A DNA stretch of 64,000 nt, from positions 158,022-222,021 of the forward strand of contig JBFWNW010000003.1 in the NCBI GenBank assembly GCA_050250855.1, written 5' to 3'. Shown here piece after piece: positions 1,072 to 29,067 of this stretch (position 1 is its first letter; the number at the start of each line of letters is the position of its first letter). Position numbers and translations under genes: made by a program. The notes below the pieces were generated by a model that saw nothing but the letters and a program-made list of their open reading frames with translations, was not told the DNA's origin and ran no database searches. The DNA comes from Candidatus Babeliales bacterium (GTDB lineage: Bacteria; Babelota; Babeliae; Babelales; JACPOV01).

Positions 1072-1872
1072 TCAATCTATTTTTACGTTCTGATCATGAA
1101 AAAAGCTTAAAAGCTTCCTATGCATGAGATCAGCCCCCGCTACATATGATCGATAACCAGGTATAACCGGCTTGCCTGTATAGGTGGAAACTATACCGCC
1201 AGCCTCCTGAATTAGTATTAAACCAGCTGCCACATCCCACCACGATAAATCCTCAAAAAAGATACCATCTGCGCGGCCACAGGCAACGTATGCCTGATCA
1301 AGCGCTATTGCTCCCAGGTGCCTAAATGCATAGGTGCGCGGCGAAATATCCTCAAGATGATGCAGCACACTCAAAAAAGCTTTACCTTTAGCATACGGAA
1401 ACCCTACTAAAAAGAGAGAACGGTCCAATGAACGCTCTTTGGATACCGTAATTTTTTGGTCATTCAAAAATGCTCCTGCTCCCTTTTGAGCGTAAAAAAG
1501 CTCATCAAAAAGCGGTACATAGATCATGCCAAAAACCGGCTGCTGTTTGTAAGTCAATGCTACCGATATGCAAAAATAAGGAATACCAAACGCAAAGTTG
1601 GTGGTACCATCAAGGGGATCTATAACCCAACAATAATCCGCATCTTGATTGCCTCGCTTGCCCGATTCTTCAGCAAAAAATGATGCTTCCGGCATCACAT
1701 TGGCAAGCTCTTGCATTAAAAATGTCTCGCTTGCCAGATCAGCTTCGGTCACAAATCCCTGATCTTTTTTATCACGCCAGGTCATCTGCTTGTGATAATA
1801 GAAAAGAAGAATCTCTCCCGCTTTACGTATAATCGGCTCAACCTGTAGCTTAAGCTCTTTATGCATCAGCAA
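1072..1872 (-). CDS. suhB: Inositol monophosphatase family protein
   Basis: [19 protein letters not shown] and WD.AAG motifs. Confidence 0.93.
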
Positions 1873-4537
1873 GTGCCTTATCTGTTAAACGAAAACTTTC
1901 ACGCGGTTCAATACCCAAAAGCTTATAAATTTCATCAGCATACAATGTTTCTTTTTCAAGAAGTGTTTTTGCCAAGAGATCAAGCTTGTCGCGATTATCT
2001 TTTAATAATTTCTCAGTTCTTTGTTGTGCATCTTTGAGTAAGTTATGAACTACTTCATCAATCTTTTCAGCAGTTTTTTGTGAATACTCAAATTGGCCGT
2101 TACCTTGATTATAAACAACGGTGCCAAGCTCATCGGTCATACCATAACGGCACACCATATTACGCGCAGCATGTGATGCTTTGTTAAAATCATCAGCAGC
2201 ACCAGAACTCAATACATTAAAAATAATCGTTTCAGCAACACGGCCACCTAAGGCAACCATGATATCAGCAAAAATCTCTTCTTTAGTTGCAAGATATTTT
2301 TCACGGTCAGGTAATGAATAGGAAACTCCTAATGCTTTACCTCGTGGCAAAATAGTAACCTTGTGTAAAGGATCTGCATGATCTGGCAATAAAAGACGAA
2401 TCAACGTATGGCCAGATTCATGGAATGCAACCATTTCACGCTCTTTTGGTGATAACACCACTGAACGCAACTCTTTACCTAATAAAATTTTATCACGCGC
2501 TTGCTCAAAATCTGTCATGCTTACCGTTTGTTTTTCTTGATGCTTTGTTGCAAGCAATGCCGCTTCATTGACCAAGTTTGCCAAATCAGCACCAGAAAAG
2601 CCTGGCGTTCCTCGTGCAATACGCATCAAATCAACATCAGTATCTAATTTTATTTTTTTTGCATGAACAGCAAGAATTTGCTCACGACTTTTAATATCTG
2701 GATACGGCACATCAACTCTACGGTCAAATCTGCCTGGACGCAATAACGCGTTATCAAGCATATCAGGACGGTTTGTTGCCGCCATAACAATAACAGTAGA
2801 ACCTTCTGAATTAAAACCATCCATTTCTGTTAACAATTGGTTTAATGTTTGCGCTCGCTCATCGCTGCCGCCATCAAAACCTGCAACACGCTTGCCACCA
2901 ACTGCATCAATTTCATCAATAAATACTATAGATGGCGAGTGTTTACGCACTTGTGCAAAAAGCTCACGTACGCGAGAAGCACCAACGCCAACATACATTT
3001 CTACAAAATCTGAAGCACTTACGCTAAAGAATGGACAGTTTGCTTCGCCAGCAACTGCTTTGGCCAATAATGTTTTACCATTACCAGGTTCCCCAACAAG
3101 CAATACACCACTTGGCAATGTTGCTCCTAGGCGACGATATTTTTCAGGATTTTTAAGAAAATCTACCACTTCCTGCAGCTCTTCTTTTGCTTCAGGAATA
3201 CCAGCAACATCATCAAATTTCGTTTTTACTTGGGTAGGCATAAACATTTTTGGCTTACTGCTACTTTTACCAAGCATAGCACCACTGCCCATAGAAGCTT
3301 TTTTACGCGATTCTAAAATAGCGGTACGTGCATCAAGTAAATCTTGCATGCCAACTTTTTTCTGATTTTTCTTTGAGCAACTAATAGCTGCTTCATTAAC
3401 AAGATTTTCTAAATCAGCACCAGAAAAACCTGCTGTTTCTTGCGCTAATTGCTCAAAATCAATAGCGTCTTCAACGCGCACTTTACGTGTATGAATTTCT
3501 AAAATTTCTTTACGTGTTTGTGTATCGGGATATTCAACCGTCACCCAACGGTCAAAGCGACCAGGGCGCAAGAGCGCTTTATCAAGCACTTCAGGAATAT
3601 TGGTTGCTGCAATAACAATAACATTAGAATTTAATGCATCAAAACCATCCATTTCAGTAAGCAACTGGTTTAATGTTTGTTCACGTTCGTCATGACCACC
3701 ACCAAAACCACTACCGCGAGAACGGCCAATAGCATCAATCTCATCAATAAAAATAATAGCTGGTGCATGTTTGCGAGCCTGTGCAAAAAGATCACGTACA
3801 CGGGCAGCGCCAACACCAACAAATACTTCTATAAAATCTGAACCGGTAATACTAAAGAAAGGACAGTTTGCCTCACCTGCAACTGCTTTAGCTAATAATG
3901 TTTTACCATTACCAGGTTCACCAACTAATAAAACACCACGAGGAATTTTTGCGCCCAAACGGCGATATTTTTCAGGATTTTTCAAAAAATCAACGATATC
4001 GGCAAGCGCTTCTTTTGCCTGCTTTGAACCAGCAACAGAATTAAAGCCTACATTAATCATAGAAGGCATTACCATACGCGCTCGGCTTTTGCCCATATTA
4101 AAGATGCTGCTCCCACTTCCGCCAGAACCTTGTCCGCGACGGAAAAAGTACCAAACAGCTAAAGGTAAAAGTAATAACAATGATAAAAAGACCATGTACC
4201 ACATGCCATAAGAGCTTGATACCGGGATAACGTGAATATCAACGCCATGCTCTTTTAAAAGATCCCAATTTCTTGGGGTATCAACAATCGTTGCTTCAAA
4301 GCGAGTTCCATCTTTATCATTCAAAACACCGTATACATCTTGTCCTGCTATTTGAACAGATTTTACTTTACCCTGCTCTACCGCAGCAATAAAGCTTGAA
4401 TAATGCATAGTTTTTACCTGACGAGAATAGTCAGTCAAATAGGTAAGCATAATGATACCAAACAGAAATGCCCCTACCATAATAAGGATATTTTTTGGTC
4501 CTTTTGGTACATGATTCATGGTAAATTTGTTTTTCAT
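1859..4537 (-). CDS. ftsH: ATP-dependent zinc metalloprotease FtsH with two tandem AAA+ domains
   Basis: Two N-terminal TM helices; two copies each of [15 protein letters not shown] and [10 protein letters not shown]; one M41 domain (HESGH, ILPRG.ALG). Confidence 0.95.
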
Positions 4538-4707
4538 ACTGTCCTTAGATTAAGTTAAATAAAAAATTATGATCTATCAGTAAGAATTAGGTCTAAAAGA
4601 CCGGTTGTCTTTATATTCTAATTGTACTATAAAAATTACAGAAATAAAAAGGTTTAACGCATATTACTCGTTATTATAGTAAAATAGCTTCATTTTGTCG
4701 ATCTCTA

Positions 4708-6042
4708 TCAACTAACTACTAAAGGAACCTTATAGGCAGGCGACCAGGCAGGATGGTTACAACGATCCTGTGCTGAGGTCAAAAAGGTTCGCTCTTGCGT
4801 AACAAGATTCAGTACCGCTATACGGCTAGCTGAACCTGTCTGCACTGTAAAAGCAAGATAGTTGCCACAAGGGGACCAGGTACATTCTTCTTTATGGTTT
4901 TTATCAAAGGTTACCTGTTCACTTTTTTTGGTTTTCATATCATAGACAAAAATTTGCATAGCCCCATCAACAAACGCACTATACGCTATTTTGCCACTTT
5001 TAGCACAATAGGCTGGGCTCACACAATGGTCGCCATCGGTCAATACTTCTGTTTGCTCGGTAAATGCATGGTAGTAGCACACCTGTGGCCCTTTTTTGTA
5101 AGCATCAGAACAAAAAATAATATCCCCATTTTCACACAACGTTGGACAAACATTATTACCATTATTAGCAGTAATTGGCCGCACTAAAGATTCATCATCT
5201 TTTTGTTCACATACATATAACTGACTTTTTCCATTCAATGAACGACAATAAATAACGCGCTTACTATCTGCAGAAAATGAAGGCAACATATTAAACCCGT
5301 CAAAATTAGAAACGAGTTTTCGTTGTTTGTGCAAATCAACCGACATTAAACGAATGTTAGAACGCGTTGCCTCCGAATATAATAATAATGGTGAAATGCT
5401 GTCTTTGTTCCAGCGCAGGGCAAATGCTCTACCCTTTTCTACTAAGGGCGTGCAAAATTCATTATAGAGTGATTGTGCAGGATCTGCATATGGCGGTGCC
5501 AGGCAAATAGTGCGTGCTCGTTTTTTTTCACCCTGCACTTCTTTACAAAATGCAATACGAGAGGTAAAAAAGCCCTCCTGTCCTGTCAAAAGCGGCCACA
5601 ATTGCCCTGCTAATAATTCTGCTCTGCAGCGCACCGGCATATCTTGTTTTGCAAAACGCTTACCGCGCACCATTGAAGCTACTTTGGTATCATACATGCG
5701 CCACTCTAAAAAATTATCCGCTGATTCAGTTATAAATACCGAAAGAGGAAAACCATCTACGGCCATCTGTTTTACTTGTTTTGTAGTAGGAACTTTTTCA
5801 AACGATTTTACCGTAACTTTAAAACCACTGGTGCGTTGGTTCGTGCGATCAAGCATAATTTTTATATACCGCGCAAACTCATCAAGTTCTGCGGTATGTT
5901 TACCAACGACACCAAGCAATAGAGGCATTTTTTGTTGCTGTTCTTGCTTGCTTTGAATGGTCATGGTTGAGGCTTGCGGCTTTGCATACAATGCTTGCTG
6001 CATTACAAAAATCATTACTAATGACAAAAGCTTTTTTTTCAT
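4708..6042 (-). CDS. tolB: TolB-like periplasmic beta-propeller protein
   Basis: Signal peptide; LTG..G.F.SRIAF junction; PD40-like repeats (PSFSAD, WSPCG, PAWSP); downstream of tolQRA-like genes. Confidence 0.85.
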   Translation of the reverse strand: MKKKLLSLVMIFVMQQALYAKPQASTMTIQSKQEQQQKMPLLLGVVGKHTAELDEFARYIKIMLDRTNQRTSGFKVTVKSFEKVPTTKQVKQMAVDGFPLSVFITESADNFLEWRMYDTKVASMVRGKRFAKQDMPVRCRAELLAGQLWPLLTGQEGFFTSRIAFCKEVQGEKKRARTICLAPPYADPAQSLYNEFCTPLVEKGRAFALRWNKDSISPLLLYSEATRSNIRLMSVDLHKQRKLVSNFDGFNMLPSFSADSKRVIYCRSLNGKSQLYVCEQKDDESLVRPITANNGNNVCPTLCENGDIIFCSDAYKKGPQVCYYHAFTEQTEVLTDGDHCVSPAYCAKSGKIAYSAFVDGAMQIFVYDMKTKKSEQVTFDKNHKEECTWSPCGNYLAFTVQTGSASRIAVLNLVTQERTFLTSAQDRCNHPAWSPAYKVPLVVS

Positions 6043-6262: not shown

Positions 6263-6979
6263 TTACTGCTTAAAGGTAATAACAACTTCCTTGCCCCATA
6301 ACTGTTTTGGAAATTTCATATTCATTAATGCTGCACGCGCTGCAATATCATACGTAATAACAGACGAAGATTCTTCAATACCACAGGTACGCACAGCACC
6401 TTTATGATCAATAACTACCTTCAATGCACAATGCACCGTACTTGCAATGCCAACGGGAGGATGCCATACTTTTTGGATTTCTTGCTCAAGCTGATCTTGT
6501 AAATCGAGCATAATTTTATCATCACGGCCAACGTAAATAATCTGTTCTTCCTGTTTTACCGGTGCGGCTTTTGGTGGCATAGTTTTTTGTACCAGTTTTG
6601 GTGCGGGTTTTTGTGCTATTTTTTTTTGTTCTATTTTTTGCTCAGGTTTTTTTGCTGGCTCAACTTTTTTTTCTGCTACAACCGTTGTCTGTTTTTTTTG
6701 TTCAACTTTTTTTGGCACTGGTTGTTGTGCAGCCTTTTGTTGTGCTACTACTACCGGTTGTTGCGCAATAGTTTTTAATGTTGGCACCAATACTATTTTT
6801 GCAGCATGAGCACGCGGTTGCACCACAAGATGCAGTTTGCTCGGGTGCTGCATTTCATACAACCATAAAATCATACAACAAGCGATACCGTGTAATGTGC
6901 TTGAAAGTACAAAAAGCTTACTCAGATACCGATAGCGTTCAGGCACGCGTTGCAATAGCTTTTTGCATTGCAATATTGA
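6263..6979 (-). CDS. TolA/TonB-like energy transducer
   Basis: TM with S..LH motif, K/Q/P-rich stalk, TonB_C-like end (W.PP...G.V.....SS....D.AA..A). Start codon uncertain. Confidence 0.8.
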   Translation of the reverse strand, partial: SILQCKKLLQRVPERYRYLSKLFVLSSTLHGIACCMILWLYEMQHPSKLHLVVQPRAHAAKIVLVPTLKTIAQQPVVVAQQKAAQQPVPKKVEQKKQTTVVAEKKVEPAKKPEQKIEQKKIAQKPAPKLVQKTMPPKAAPVKQEEQIIYVGRDDKIMLDLQDQLEQEIQKVWHPPVGIASTVHCALKVVIDHKGAVRTCGIEESSSVITYDIAARAALMNMKFPKQLWGKEVVITFKQ

Positions 6980-7379
6980 CATCTTTAATTCCCCCAATAG
7001 TTTTTATGCGGTCAATAACGCCAACCAAAAGATCACAAGAACTTTTTGCGTGTGCATGAACCCAAATACTTTGCTCAGAATTATATTTTTGTGCTACATG
7101 TTTTTTTACCGCTTCTCCTACGGTATCCAAAGAAACTTCATTATTATTAAAAAAGATTTTACCAGCAGTATCAATGGAAATAATAAGCTGCTGCGGCTCT
7201 TTACCTGCTTCTTGCGAAGAACCTTTTGGCAAATCAATTTTTAATGCATTATGCAACATCGGCGTTGCAACCATAAAAATAATAAGCAACGTTAACGCTG
7301 TATCAATAAGTGGAGTTAAACTTACTTCTGGAATTACATTGCGTTGACGTTTGCGTTGGTGGTAACGACGCATCATCAT
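6939..7379 (-). CDS. tolR: TolR/ExbD biopolymer transport protein
   Basis: LTPLID..L.LLIIFMVATP...IDLP. Confidence 0.9.
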   Translation of the reverse strand: MMMRRYHQRKRQRNVIPEVSLTPLIDTALTLLIIFMVATPMLHNALKIDLPKGSSQEAGKEPQQLIISIDTAGKIFFNNNEVSLDTVGEAVKKHVAQKYNSEQSIWVHAHAKSSCDLLVGVIDRIKTIGGIKDVNIAMQKAIATRA

Positions 7380-7383
7380 AACA

Positions 7384-8070
7384 CTACCTTTTTATAAATA
7401 ACATTTGTACAAGCCATGACAGTTTGTCTGCCAAATTAAACAGCTTGTGTTCAAAACTACGCACTTGTGTATTTAAGTAATGGAACATTAAGAGTGCAGG
7501 AATTGCCACTAATAATCCTACCAAGGTAGTAATTAATGCTTCTGCTATACCGGGTGCAATAGTAGCAATATCTGCTTGTTGCGTTTCACTAATACGAATG
7601 AAAGAATGCACCAAGCCCCACACCGTACCAAAAAGACCAAGTAATGGCGCAGCTGCTGCAGATCCTGACAAAATAGGCAAATATGATTCTTCTTGATACA
7701 GCACTTCTTCAATAGTTTGTTCTACATGCTGCATTAAAAGTTCTAATTCATGCTCACTCAATGGCATTAAACTTTCTTTAACTTCTAACAATGATTTTAA
7801 AAATGATAAATTTTTAGCAACAACGTACCCTGGCAGCGTGTGAGAAAATGCTGCAGCCATAGTACGTAGATCATCAAGATTGTGAACCTTTTTTAAATAG
7901 TTTAGCGCTTCTTTTAATTGCCGCTTTTTAATTCTAAACATTACTATTTTGTAAAAAAAGACCGTCCAACAAAGAATAGACATGAATAGCAAAATAAGAA
8001 GCACAAATTTGGTCATGCTATCTGATTGTGCTATTAAATTAAAAAATGCATTACCCTCTAAAAATCCCAT
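7384..8070 (-). CDS. tolQ: TolQ/ExbB proton channel protein
   Basis: APLLGLFGTVWG...F...IAPGIAEALITT..GL.VAIPA. Confidence 0.93.
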   Translation of the reverse strand: MGFLEGNAFFNLIAQSDSMTKFVLLILLFMSILCWTVFFYKIVMFRIKKRQLKEALNYLKKVHNLDDLRTMAAAFSHTLPGYVVAKNLSFLKSLLEVKESLMPLSEHELELLMQHVEQTIEEVLYQEESYLPILSGSAAAAPLLGLFGTVWGLVHSFIRISETQQADIATIAPGIAEALITTLVGLLVAIPALLMFHYLNTQVRSFEHKLFNLADKLSWLVQMLFIKR

Positions 8071-26634: not shown

Positions 26635-29067
26635 ATGAATTCAGAAATTATTAACCAACAGCCCCTGCACCAACCCCCTCTGCACAATATGCTACCTCTT
26701 TTACCGCTTAAAAATGTAGTCATATTGCCTAAGACTATCGTGCCTATAATTGTTGGACGAGAGATTTCTGTAAAGGCTGTGGAAGAGGCATTAAGAGGTG
26801 ATGGCTCTATTTTTATCTCCACTCAAAAGGATGGCGAGGTAGAAAACCCTACCCAAAAAGATGTTTTTGAGTATGGTATACGTGCCACTATCCTTCAGGT
26901 TCCCAAAGAAGAACAACGCCGTTATAATGGTATGTTTAAAATCTTGGTAGAAGGCCTTTCTCGAGCAAAAATAGTAAGCTCTCATGTTGAAAATGGCTTT
27001 ATTATGGTTACCTGCCAAGACCTTCCTACAACAAATCTAGAGCTTTCTACCCATATGCAGGCATTATGGCGCTATGCAAAAGGACTCTATGAAAGCTATG
27101 CTCGTCTTAATGAAAAAATCCCCGCCGATTTAATGAGCTTGGCAAAAACAGCAGAAGATATGGATACTATTGCAGATACTATTGCTGTTCATTTAAATCT
27201 TTCTTTTTTTGATCGCCAAGAACTTGTTGAAACAGTTGATCTTAAAGAACGTTTAACAAAACTTAGCAAATTCTTAGCACAAGAAATCGAAATTCTTGAA
27301 ACAGAAAAACGTATTAAAGGCCGCGTTCAAAATCAGGTTGAAAAAAATCAACGTGAATATTATTTAACAGAACAAATTAAAGCTATCCAAAAAGAGCTTG
27401 GCCGTGATGATCATCAACATGATATTAATGAAATTCGTGCAAAAATAAAAACGCTTGGCTTGCCAGAAGAAGTCTATGAAAAGACAGAAAAAGAGTTAAA
27501 GCGCTTAGATCAGATGCCACCTCTTTCTGCTGAAGCAGTTGTTTCTCGTAACTATGTTGACTGGGTAATTTCATTACCATGGAATAAACAAAGTAAAGAT
27601 CGCATTAGCTTGGCCCAAGCCGAAAAAATTTTAAATCAAAAACATGCAGGCTTAAGCAAAGCAAAAGAACGTATTATCGAGTTCTTGGCTGCAAAAAAAT
27701 ATTCTAAATCGTTAGAACGCTCCCCTATTATTTGCCTTGTAGGAGCTCCAGGTGTTGGTAAAACATCACTTGCTTCTTCTATTGCAGAAAGTTTGGGGCG
27801 TGAATTTGTACGTATCTCTTTAGGTGGTATTCGCGATGAAGCTGAAATTCGTGGTCATCGCAGAACCTATATTGGTGCATTACCAGGAAAAATTTTACAA
27901 GCCATGCGTAAAGCAAAAACAGTAAACCCAGTTATTTTGCTTGATGAGATTGATAAAATGACCCGTGATATTCATGGTGATCCTGCTGCCGCATTACTTG
28001 AGGTACTTGACCCAGAACAAAACAAAAATTTTGTAGATCATTTTCTTGAAGTTGAATATGACCTTTCAAAGGTTATGTTTATTGCTACTGCCAATATGAT
28101 TGATACTATTCCGTTACCGCTTTTTGACCGTATGGAAATTATCACGTTACCTGGTTATATCGACGAAGAAAAAGTTACCATCGCTCGAAAATTCTTGATC
28201 CCTAAAGGACTTAAAGAACACAGTTTGGATGCTCATGCTTTTAAAATAAGCGATGAGCTTTTAGAGCATCTTGTTTCTTATTACACGCGAGAAGCTGGGG
28301 TCCGTCAGCTAGAACGAGTTTTAAATAAACTTATGCGCAAAGTTATTCAAGAACTACTCAACAAACCAGAAAAAAAATCGGTCGCTATAACTAAAGAGTT
28401 GATTGTTGAGTGGCTTGGCTATCAAAAATACAAAAAAACATCACTTGACCATTCAAAAGATCGCTGTGGACTTGCTACAGGACTTGCTTGGACAGAAGTT
28501 GGTGGTGATATTTTAGAGATTGAATCTACCGTGCTTCCTGGCAAAGGTAATGTAACCCTAACAGGACAGCTTGGTGAAGTAATGCAAGAATCTGCTCAGG
28601 CAGCATTAAGCTATATTCGCTCTCGCTCAGCTGCACTTGGAATTAATGCTTCGTTCCACTCAAATAAGGACATTCACGTTCATTTACCAGAAGGTGCAAC
28701 CCCTAAAGATGGCCCATCTGCTGGTATTACCATGTGTGCGGCTTTAGTTTCTATGCTTACTAAAAACCCTACCAAAGCGGCTGTTGCCATGACAGGTGAA
28801 ATAACCTTGCGTGGCCGCGTATTGGCAGTTGGTGGCCTTAAAGAGAAACTTTTAGCTGCTCAACAACATGGGATGAAAACCGTTCTTGTTCCTAAAGAAA
28901 ATGAAGATGACATTAATGAAATGTCTAAAGAAGTGAAAACTAGCCTTTCTATCATCTTTGTTGAAAATATGGATGAAGTACTTAAGCATGCATTGGTTAA
29001 TGACCCTTTCATTCTTAAGCCAAAAAGAAAAAGAAAAAAAAGAACTAAAAAGAAAAGTAAGAAGTAA
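26635..29067 (+). CDS. lon: Lon protease
   Basis: Lon N domain, [40 protein letters not shown]. Confidence 0.97.

Follow-up and report, generated by a model that had tools for sequence, protein, structure and literature searches.

Our question at this locus was what to make of an ftsH gene whose product carries two complete AAA+ ATPase modules in series before a single protease domain. The gene lies in a stretch of 64,000 nucleotides (nt), here called the window, which covers positions 158,022 to 222,021 of contig JBFWNW010000003.1 from a Candidatus Babeliales bacterium (assembly GCA_050250855.1). The source genome is 1.22 Mb in 11 contigs and is 95% complete, and its relatives are publicly named Candidatus Babeliales, Dependentiae or TM6. 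A sequence-only reading of the window had described the tandem modules and proposed a double-ring FtsH. We found that this tandem-motor architecture of a well-known family is real, old, selected and, as far as we found, undescribed. The interpretation that we prefer, with a probability of roughly 0.6, is that the product is a housekeeping, membrane-anchored FtsH which would form a hexamer with two stacked active rings, following one ancient in-frame duplication of the ATPase unit.

The gene (product P0001) is a single uninterrupted open reading frame (ORF) of 892 amino acids (aa) at 1859..4537 on the minus strand, as are all the features of it given below, and was identified by ORF calling and profile matches. 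The product runs from a first transmembrane segment (TM1) through the periplasmic FtsH_ext domain and a second transmembrane segment (TM2) to an AAA plus lid module (D1), a linker of about 16 aa, another AAA plus lid module (D2) and a single M41 protease domain. Pfam places FtsH_ext (PF06480) at aa 17-103 (4229..4489) and Peptidase_M41 (PF01434), found once, at aa 694-872 (1922..2458), with two stretches each of AAA (E 2.4e-91) and AAA_lid_3 between them, which is the order that had been predicted for a domain scan. The hydrophobic segments begin at about aa 13 and about aa 106 in a hydropathy scan, and the hidden Markov model (HMM) envelopes of D1 and D2 are aa 161-420 and aa 437-697. Pfam, TIGR01241 and a motif script all agree on two complete AAA+ modules before one M41 domain with an intact HESGH zinc motif (aa 706-710; 2408-2422). 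The script puts the Walker A motif, GEPGNGKT in both modules, at aa 206-213 in D1 (3899..3922) and aa 482-489 in D2 (3071..3094), 828 nt (276 aa) apart, exactly as had been read from the sequence. Walker B is found as DEID at aa 265 and aa 541 (FIDEID in D1), and both modules carry a pore loop (FVG with F239 in D1, YVG with Y515 in D2), sensor-1 AATN and the arginine finger motif RPGRFDR, so that motif scans uphold the full set of catalytic motifs claimed for each. The linker between the modules (aa 421-436; 3230..3277) is rich in S, G, A and K, and alignment and spacing counts show that its length is conserved and its sequence poorly so.

Profile scores place this protein with FtsH. It scores 1189.6 bits with NCBIfam TIGR01241, the FtsH equivalog model, where the cut-off is 600, and remains below cut-off with both the narrower model of E. 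coli-type FtsH (NF008004; 916.6 bits, cut-off 1008) and the Cdc48/p97 subfamily model (TIGR01243; 469.5 bits, cut-off 802.65). Its neighbours in the ESM Atlas are single-module FtsH clusters only. It shares with canonical FtsH the two transmembrane segments and FtsH_ext, the Gly-rich GKSxA linker, classical-clade AAA with an aromatic pore loop, the M41 HExxH, the spacing from AAA to HExxH and the tolB-ftsH-suhB position of the single-module genes of related genomes. It departs from it by a second complete AAA plus lid module (276 aa) in frame, and FtsH chains in the PDB (the solved structures 7tdo, 7vhp, 2ce7, 2dhr and 4ww0) match it in two separate stretches. Canonical FtsH has one AAA module per protomer; given two AAA and two AAA_lid_3 stretches, we regard the tandem protein as a variant architecture inside the FtsH family. 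Like type II AAA+ proteins, it also has a pair of AAA modules in a single chain with a short linker between them.

The two modules are copies of one another. The repeat unit is 276 aa long, with the first unit at aa 141-416 (3290..4117; Gly/Ser linker with the GKSxA motif, D1 AAA large domain and D1 lid) and the second at aa 417-692 (2462..3289; linker, D2 AAA large domain and D2 lid), and by motif script and alignment they pair without gaps at 57% aa and 65% DNA identity. Since the unit starts directly after TM2, takes in the Gly/Ser linker with its GKSxA...MP motif and stops at the last lid helix, it is the entire cytoplasmic ATPase unit that was copied. Third codon positions of the two copies are 50% identical, and the copies share no exact DNA match longer than 26 nt. 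Within one protein D1 and D2 have 60.7% identity, no more than D1 has to D2 across species (60.0 +/- 2.4%). The copies have thus not evolved in concert, and they arose before these lineages split. The same comparison led us to reject gene conversion between the two modules. Together with the relatives and bridging contigs described below, these figures bear out the proposal of an old internal duplication rather than an assembly repeat.

The sequence-only reading had also seen unusual signatures that seemed special to the two modules, and this part did not stand because GxPGNGKT is common in the single-module FtsH of related genomes too (19/24). Only two positions separate D1 from D2 at 80% conservation or more. 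One is the pore aromatic, where D1 keeps the F found in 96% of single-module relatives, and the other is position 369/645, where the ancestral P is retained in D2. Over their full length D1 and D2 are equidistant from single-module relatives, at 65.5% identity each. In the first two thirds these relatives are nearer to D1 (76-77%) than to D2 (70-71%), and in the lid third they are nearer to D2 (56%) than to D1 (43%), a pattern that holds as well for a clearly ancestral set of relatives (group A of the rpoB tree described below). These segment-wise identities indicate that the ancestral ATPase core was kept by D1 and the ancestral protease-proximal lid by D2.

Relatives with the same architecture are numerous. 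A search of 5.8 billion clusters returned at least 120 proteins of 830-943 aa with 55-77% identity, and among the matches listed 120/120 clusters have two GK[TS] P-loops and one HExxH. For the conservation counts the modules were excised at the P-loops from 119 of the 120 listed proteins; P0028, whose first P-loop reads GEAGNGKT, was excluded by the strict pattern. The Walker A K/T, the Walker B D/E, the DGF inter-subunit motif, the sensor-1 N, both Arg fingers and the pore V-G are all invariant in 119/119 D1 and 119/119 D2. The pore aromatic is F in 118/119 D1, whereas among the 119 D2 it is Y in 100 cases and F in the other 19. In the protease domain the H, E and H of HExxH are invariant in 120/120 listed proteins. 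Mean identity is 68% within D1 and 66% within D2. The ratio of nonsynonymous to synonymous substitution rates (dN/dS) is 0.035 for D1, 0.058 for D2 and 0.031 for M41 in L009/L011, the only pair with unsaturated dS; in five other pairs it is at most 0.15 where computable, a rough figure given that synonymous sites are saturated. Both modules are under strong purifying selection, and judging from their motifs both look catalytically competent.

How such a protein would work can be approached from its spacing. The distance from the D2 Walker A to HExxH is 219-224 aa, compared to 223-224 aa in 24/24 single-module relatives, and with this distance the same, D2 and M41 make up a canonical FtsH core; in the best-matching solved structures the protease domains of such a core are arranged in a six-fold ring. 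The two Walker A motifs are 270-279 aa apart (275-277 aa in 99/119), and aa 159-667 of the tandem protein align with residues 197-702 of p97/Cdc48 in one colinear stretch (E ~1e-110). From the canonical D2-HExxH spacing, the kept P-loop spacing and this colinearity we infer a stacked double ring. The linker between TM2 and D1 resembles that of ordinary FtsH, so D1 would occupy the usual place under the membrane. In the arrangement that we propose, six protomers would assemble via the M41 ring as in canonical FtsH, D2 would take the position that the single module has on the protease there, and D1 would form a second ring between D2 and the membrane, with D2 and M41 displaced about one ring deeper into the cytoplasm. 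Substrate arriving from the membrane side would be pulled past two levels of pore loops, first F239 and then Y515, on its way to the protease chamber. The extra ring could provide more grip or processivity, on the model of the double-ring unfoldases ClpA and ClpB, in a lineage where we found no ClpP, and by this analogy it may improve grip on hard substrates. In ClpA, D2 is described as the stronger motor and D1 as required for processivity (accessible part of PMC7568338). On the sequence evidence we consider the double-ring mechanism likely.

A tandem gene could also be an artefact, either of the chimeric assembly of two ftsH paralogs or of a fusion made in gene calling. The source is a metagenome-assembled genome (MAG) of 11 contigs, and contigs alone, with no raw reads, were aligned to the window, both of which would leave room for this explanation. 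However, the 120 listed clusters come from many sources and show the same architecture with the same spacing, several of the tandem relatives are on contigs of 1.2-1.9 Mb, and related species with single-contig genomes have the architecture as well. Two runs, which may be the source samples, have Logan contigs that span 1700-4700 with 0 differences. In a third sample of the same study a 586-nt Logan contig spans 3167-3752, again with 0 differences, and so crosses the module junction at 3289, and a 242-nt Logan contig of a different study covers 3490-3730 with one difference. These comparisons are to contigs rather than raw reads, used an 85% threshold and disregarded apparent joints that came from conserved FtsH segments of other organisms. 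Additionally, D1 and D2 each make deep clades that track species, and the genome has no second canonical ftsH that could have been the other parent. The artefact explanation is effectively refuted.

The other rivals accept the gene and assign D1 a different role. D1 could be mainly a regulatory or assembly tier, comparable to D1 of p97 or D2 of NSF, in which ATP binding stabilises or gates the hexamer with little translocation and D2 alone drives degradation. In type II classical AAA proteins one ring often carries most of the work, and such a role would also fit the diverged lid third of D1 and the fact that related species lose or lack the extra module with no obvious compensation. Rings used only for assembly usually lose their catalytic residues, however, whereas the Walker B Glu, sensor-1, both Arg fingers and the pore aromatic of D1 are invariant or nearly so in 119/119 proteins. 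D1 has also kept the ancestral pore Phe, and true relaxation of a first module can be seen for comparison in the Babeliales paralog L050, with a Walker B of DD and no Arg fingers. We consider it unlikely that D1 is mainly regulatory. Quite improbable, in our assessment, is an arrangement in which D1 and D2 lie side by side in one six-membered ring, such that three chains make a pseudo-hexamer and there is no second tier. A flexible linker of ~16-25 residues could reach the neighbouring position, the Arg fingers would be conserved in this arrangement too, and parallels exist in concatenated AAA rings and in the alternating heterohexamers known for FtsH, including m-AAA. But with one M41 per chain, three protease domains would be unable to close the canonical six-fold ring, and the spacing from D2 to M41 is identical to that of canonical FtsH. 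Relatives elsewhere with 3 and 4 intact modules cannot all tile a ring of six, and the colinearity with the D1-D2 of p97, a stacked enzyme, points the opposite way.

Several observations do count against the two-ring hexamer that we prefer. One module suffices in close relatives, two are seen in just about 30 of the 151 genomes sampled, and sister species differ from each other, thus a second ring would be dispensable or easily lost. The last third of D1, its lid, is strongly diverged, as its identity is 41% when compared with D2 and 43% when compared with single-module relatives, and the lid contacts of D1 are changed in an uninterpretable way. The ESM Atlas monomer model is of modest confidence, with a predicted template modelling score (pTM) of 0.48 and a predicted local distance difference test score (pLDDT) of 0.71. 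The absence of ClpP does not discriminate, as single-module relatives lack it as well and each of the 41 genomes compared has two Lon genes. Finally, whether canonical FtsH is limited by power at all is disputed, according to the available portion of PMC9601784.

To place the tandem form we compared 41 genomes of the order, the source genome included. Fifteen have a full-length tandem gene and in one more (G009) the tandem gene is truncated where its contig stops, which makes 16/41, and 24 have a single-module ftsH of 600-650 aa. In G003, of the same family and 86% complete, the FtsH match contains 23 stop codons and the Lon and rpoB matches are likewise stop-ridden, which we read as a sign of poor assembly and not of biology. 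Across the phylum, 151 evenly sampled genomes gave 28 full-length tandem genes and 2 broken by contig ends (about a fifth), so the tandem form is a feature of a clade and not phylum-wide. No cultured isolate was named among the 10 tandem clusters that were looked up. The 95%-complete source genome yielded no second intact FtsH. The sole other match, L002 (G000:C1, 1474..3876, minus strand, outside the window), is an 800-aa protein with an extended N-terminus, a single AAA module and an M41-like C-terminal part in which HQAGH replaces HExxH, leaving the tandem protein as the only intact FtsH found. L002 is probably a protease-dead FtsH paralog, as suggested by this motif, and its relatives (800-930 aa, ~26-35% identity) are present in most related genomes.

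Trees of the individual modules, built from D1, D2 and single-module FtsH, are consistent with this being one old event. All Babeliales FtsH modules form one clade, within which 15/15 D1 form one clade (starred support of 99, in FastTree and quick IQ-TREE) and 14/15 D2 form another (88). The remaining D2, that of G025, is apart on a long branch with L045, a short gene derived from the D2 and M41 part of G025 (100). Approximately unbiased (AU) tests reject neither a clade of D2 with L045 (p 0.47) nor one of D1, D2 and L045 (p 0.32), and a single internal duplication therefore fits, although the groups were named after the first tree, which weakens these tests. L045 itself (G025:C1:299300-302300) is carried by G025 in addition to its tandem ftsH and encodes 531 aa with ~83 residues before the AAA module; its AAA and M41 parts are the sisters of the D2 and M41 of that tandem gene (100).

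What happened after the duplication is less simple. A tree of rpoB from 40 genomes (G003 excluded; G040 and G026 partial) divides into group A, with 12 genomes that are all single-module, and group B, with 28 genomes that include all 16 tandem and 12 single. Within group B, families f1, f15 and f17 together are all tandem (12 genomes; support 94). Elsewhere sisters are of unlike form, namely G030 (tandem) with G010 (single; starred support of 99) and G033 (tandem) with G013 (single; starred support of 97), and the starred branches force at least three changes of state between tandem and single. The tree of the unduplicated flanks (N-terminus plus M41) also joins G030 and G010 (88). No single-module gene is nested in the D1 clade in the module trees. 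A recent reversion of the single genes of G010, G013 and G018 from the tandem form was examined and rejected, as they have no consistent segment-wise closeness to the D1 or D2 of their sister species. Three routes could produce the present distribution. The single genes could originate by repeated loss through D1-D2 recombination, which would regenerate an ancestral-looking module, the two forms could have coexisted for long with differential loss, or the alternation could be due to gene transfer.

The order holds further FtsH-like proteins with more than one AAA module. L050 (G022:C24:100300-104100) is a distinct AAA-AAA-M41 paralog of ~790 aa, and the main FtsH of that genome has one module. 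The second module of L050 is intact, whereas the first is degenerate, with DD for Walker B and no Arg fingers left; G122 has a 796-aa frame similar to L050. Among L048, L054, L055 and L056 are FtsH-like tandem-AAA proteins of 606-622 aa with no protease domain, two of these being adjacent genes in G013. One protein, of 1194 aa, has four AAA segments. Lon of the order also occurs in long frames (953, 1122, 1261 and 1924 aa) with at least two Lon AAA(+protease) segments in series, for example at G018:C5:4590-7298, G026:C6:12092-14701 and G024:C3:62442-71854, and module stacking may thus exist in Lon here as well.

The surroundings of the gene are those of an ordinary ftsH. Downstream, an inositol monophosphatase family gene (suhB-like; 1072..1872, minus strand, ORF calling and family match) has a start that overlaps the end of ftsH by 14 nt. 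Upstream, and also on the minus strand, are a PD40 beta-propeller gene (tolB-like; 4708-6042), an unnamed 244-aa ORF (6263-6997, from ORF calling), ExbD/TolR (6939-7379) and MotA/TolQ/ExbB (7384-8070), those with names being assigned by family match. With S20 and a CCA/poly(A) polymerase-HD protein, these make up the seven flanking ORFs. The tolB-like gene adjoins 9/15 tandem and 18/24 single-module ftsH loci of related genomes, and the downstream phosphatase recurs beside both kinds; with these neighbours common to both sets, the tandem gene is the positional ortholog of ordinary ftsH. In the 170-nt spacer between tolB and ftsH there is a sigma-70-like promoter match (TCGACA-17-TATAAT, 11/12; 4673..4701, minus strand), a consensus match only. 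The number of such sites in the region is not significant (18 seen, 21.6 expected). A strong terminator-like hairpin, likewise a consensus match only, follows the S20 gene at 466-491.

We also considered whether the duplication was caused by compensation for lost proteases. ClpP was above the cut-off in 0/41 genomes, and ClpX and HslU were not found in the source genome, which does have a ClpB-like gene (G000:C2:112170-114698). Each of the 41 genomes has two Lon genes, and those of the source genome are at about 26695-28995 of the window (plus strand) and at G000:C2:172404-174683. Since single-module relatives likewise lack ClpP and have a doubled Lon, compensation was rejected as a discriminator, and the same pattern in tandem and single-module genomes means that the protease set does not explain the duplication.

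Outside this order, FtsH proteins with more than one AAA module were found by an exhaustive HMMER search over 1.84 billion representatives, followed by Pfam and motif scans. Three AAA modules with one M41 are seen in the metagenome proteins P0121 (with FtsH_ext), P0123, P0124, P0128 and P0206, with motifs mostly intact, and four AAA with one M41 in P0126 (1367 aa). About 15 more FtsH have two modules, and for most of them the motifs are intact in every module. These counts take the frames as they stand in the contigs. Some clusters have members from separate contigs (12 for P0129, 6 for P0121, 4 each for P0123 and P0255), and by public names the three-module P0123 cluster belongs to Thermoleophilaceae and the two-module P0255 cluster to Melainabacteria/Cyanobacteria MAGs. 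When triple-AAA FtsH was sought in named genomes with P0123, 80/80 of the matches listed were FtsH of ordinary length (~1.4-1.9 kb). In a FastTree phylogeny of 145 modules those of each such protein or group cluster together and away from the Babeliales modules, with starred support for P0256, P0162, P0193, P0123+P0145, P0126+P0206+P0240 and P0177. This clustering, from FastTree only and with long branches, points to independent duplications in other lineages. The same search returned P0122 (1428 aa), with two complete FtsH units in one frame (AAA-M41-AAA-M41 with FtsH_ext), probably two adjacent ftsH genes that are fused or read through.

Whether a tandem-AAA FtsH had been described before bears directly on how new this is. 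Full-text searches over the main text of openly available papers turned up no account of a membrane-bound FtsH that has two AAA modules, and FtsH has zero occurrences in the Dependentiae genome papers listed. The nearest precedents are two. One is the component of the MoxR-vWA "FtsH ternary" conflict systems that has two FtsH-type AAA+ domains, the N-terminal copy being inactive through loss of its P-loop and Walker B (Kaur, Burroughs, Iyer and Aravind 2020; accessible part of PMC7159879). It is like the tandem protein in holding two FtsH-type copies in one chain, but the accessible text treats it as a chaperone beside MoxR and vWA genes and not as a housekeeping membrane protease. In our case D1 has GEPGNGKT and FIDEID, invariant across the family, and there is no MoxR or vWA gene among the seven ORFs flanking the gene. 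The other precedent is Ycf2/Orf2971 of plastids, an FtsH-related ATPase reported to have two AAA+ domains of unequal activity. This is a huge protein of plastid import or quality control, not a bacterial FtsH ortholog, and the accessible part of PMC9421593 describes no M41 module in it.

Better known double-ring enzymes resemble the tandem protein in part. The type II classical AAA proteins p97/VCP/Cdc48/VAT likewise have two classical-clade AAA modules and a short linker. However, the tandem FtsH has no N domain, is membrane-anchored and has a covalently fused protease, and its modules are FtsH-type paralogs of each other rather than Cdc48 orthologs. With ClpA/ClpC and ClpP it would share, if its rings are stacked as we propose, an outline in which substrate passes from two ATPase tiers, both of them active, into one proteolytic chamber (PMC7568338, in the part accessible); those machines are soluble, belong to another AAA+ clade and have a separate peptidase protein.

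Public annotation labels all of these proteins plain FtsH, which makes a multi-module class invisible in databases. We tentatively suggest, at somewhat less than even odds, that multi-tier FtsH is an unrecognised and recurrent class of membrane AAA protease, in which several phyla would have independently stacked two, three or four intact motor rings on one protease ring. Dependentiae would then switch between one and two tiers from one sister species to another, and the number of tiers could be an evolvable "gear" for the force of extraction or unfolding. How much force FtsH can generate is still debated (available portion of PMC9601784). The tandem FtsH offers a built-in comparison for this, with the same protease and anchor under one or two rings in the sister species G010/G030 and G013/G033. 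Ring cooperation, the unfolding power per tier and the distance from membrane to protease thereby become directly testable in a covalently fused protease, and the independent forms with two to four modules suggest that module stacking is a general route of motor evolution.

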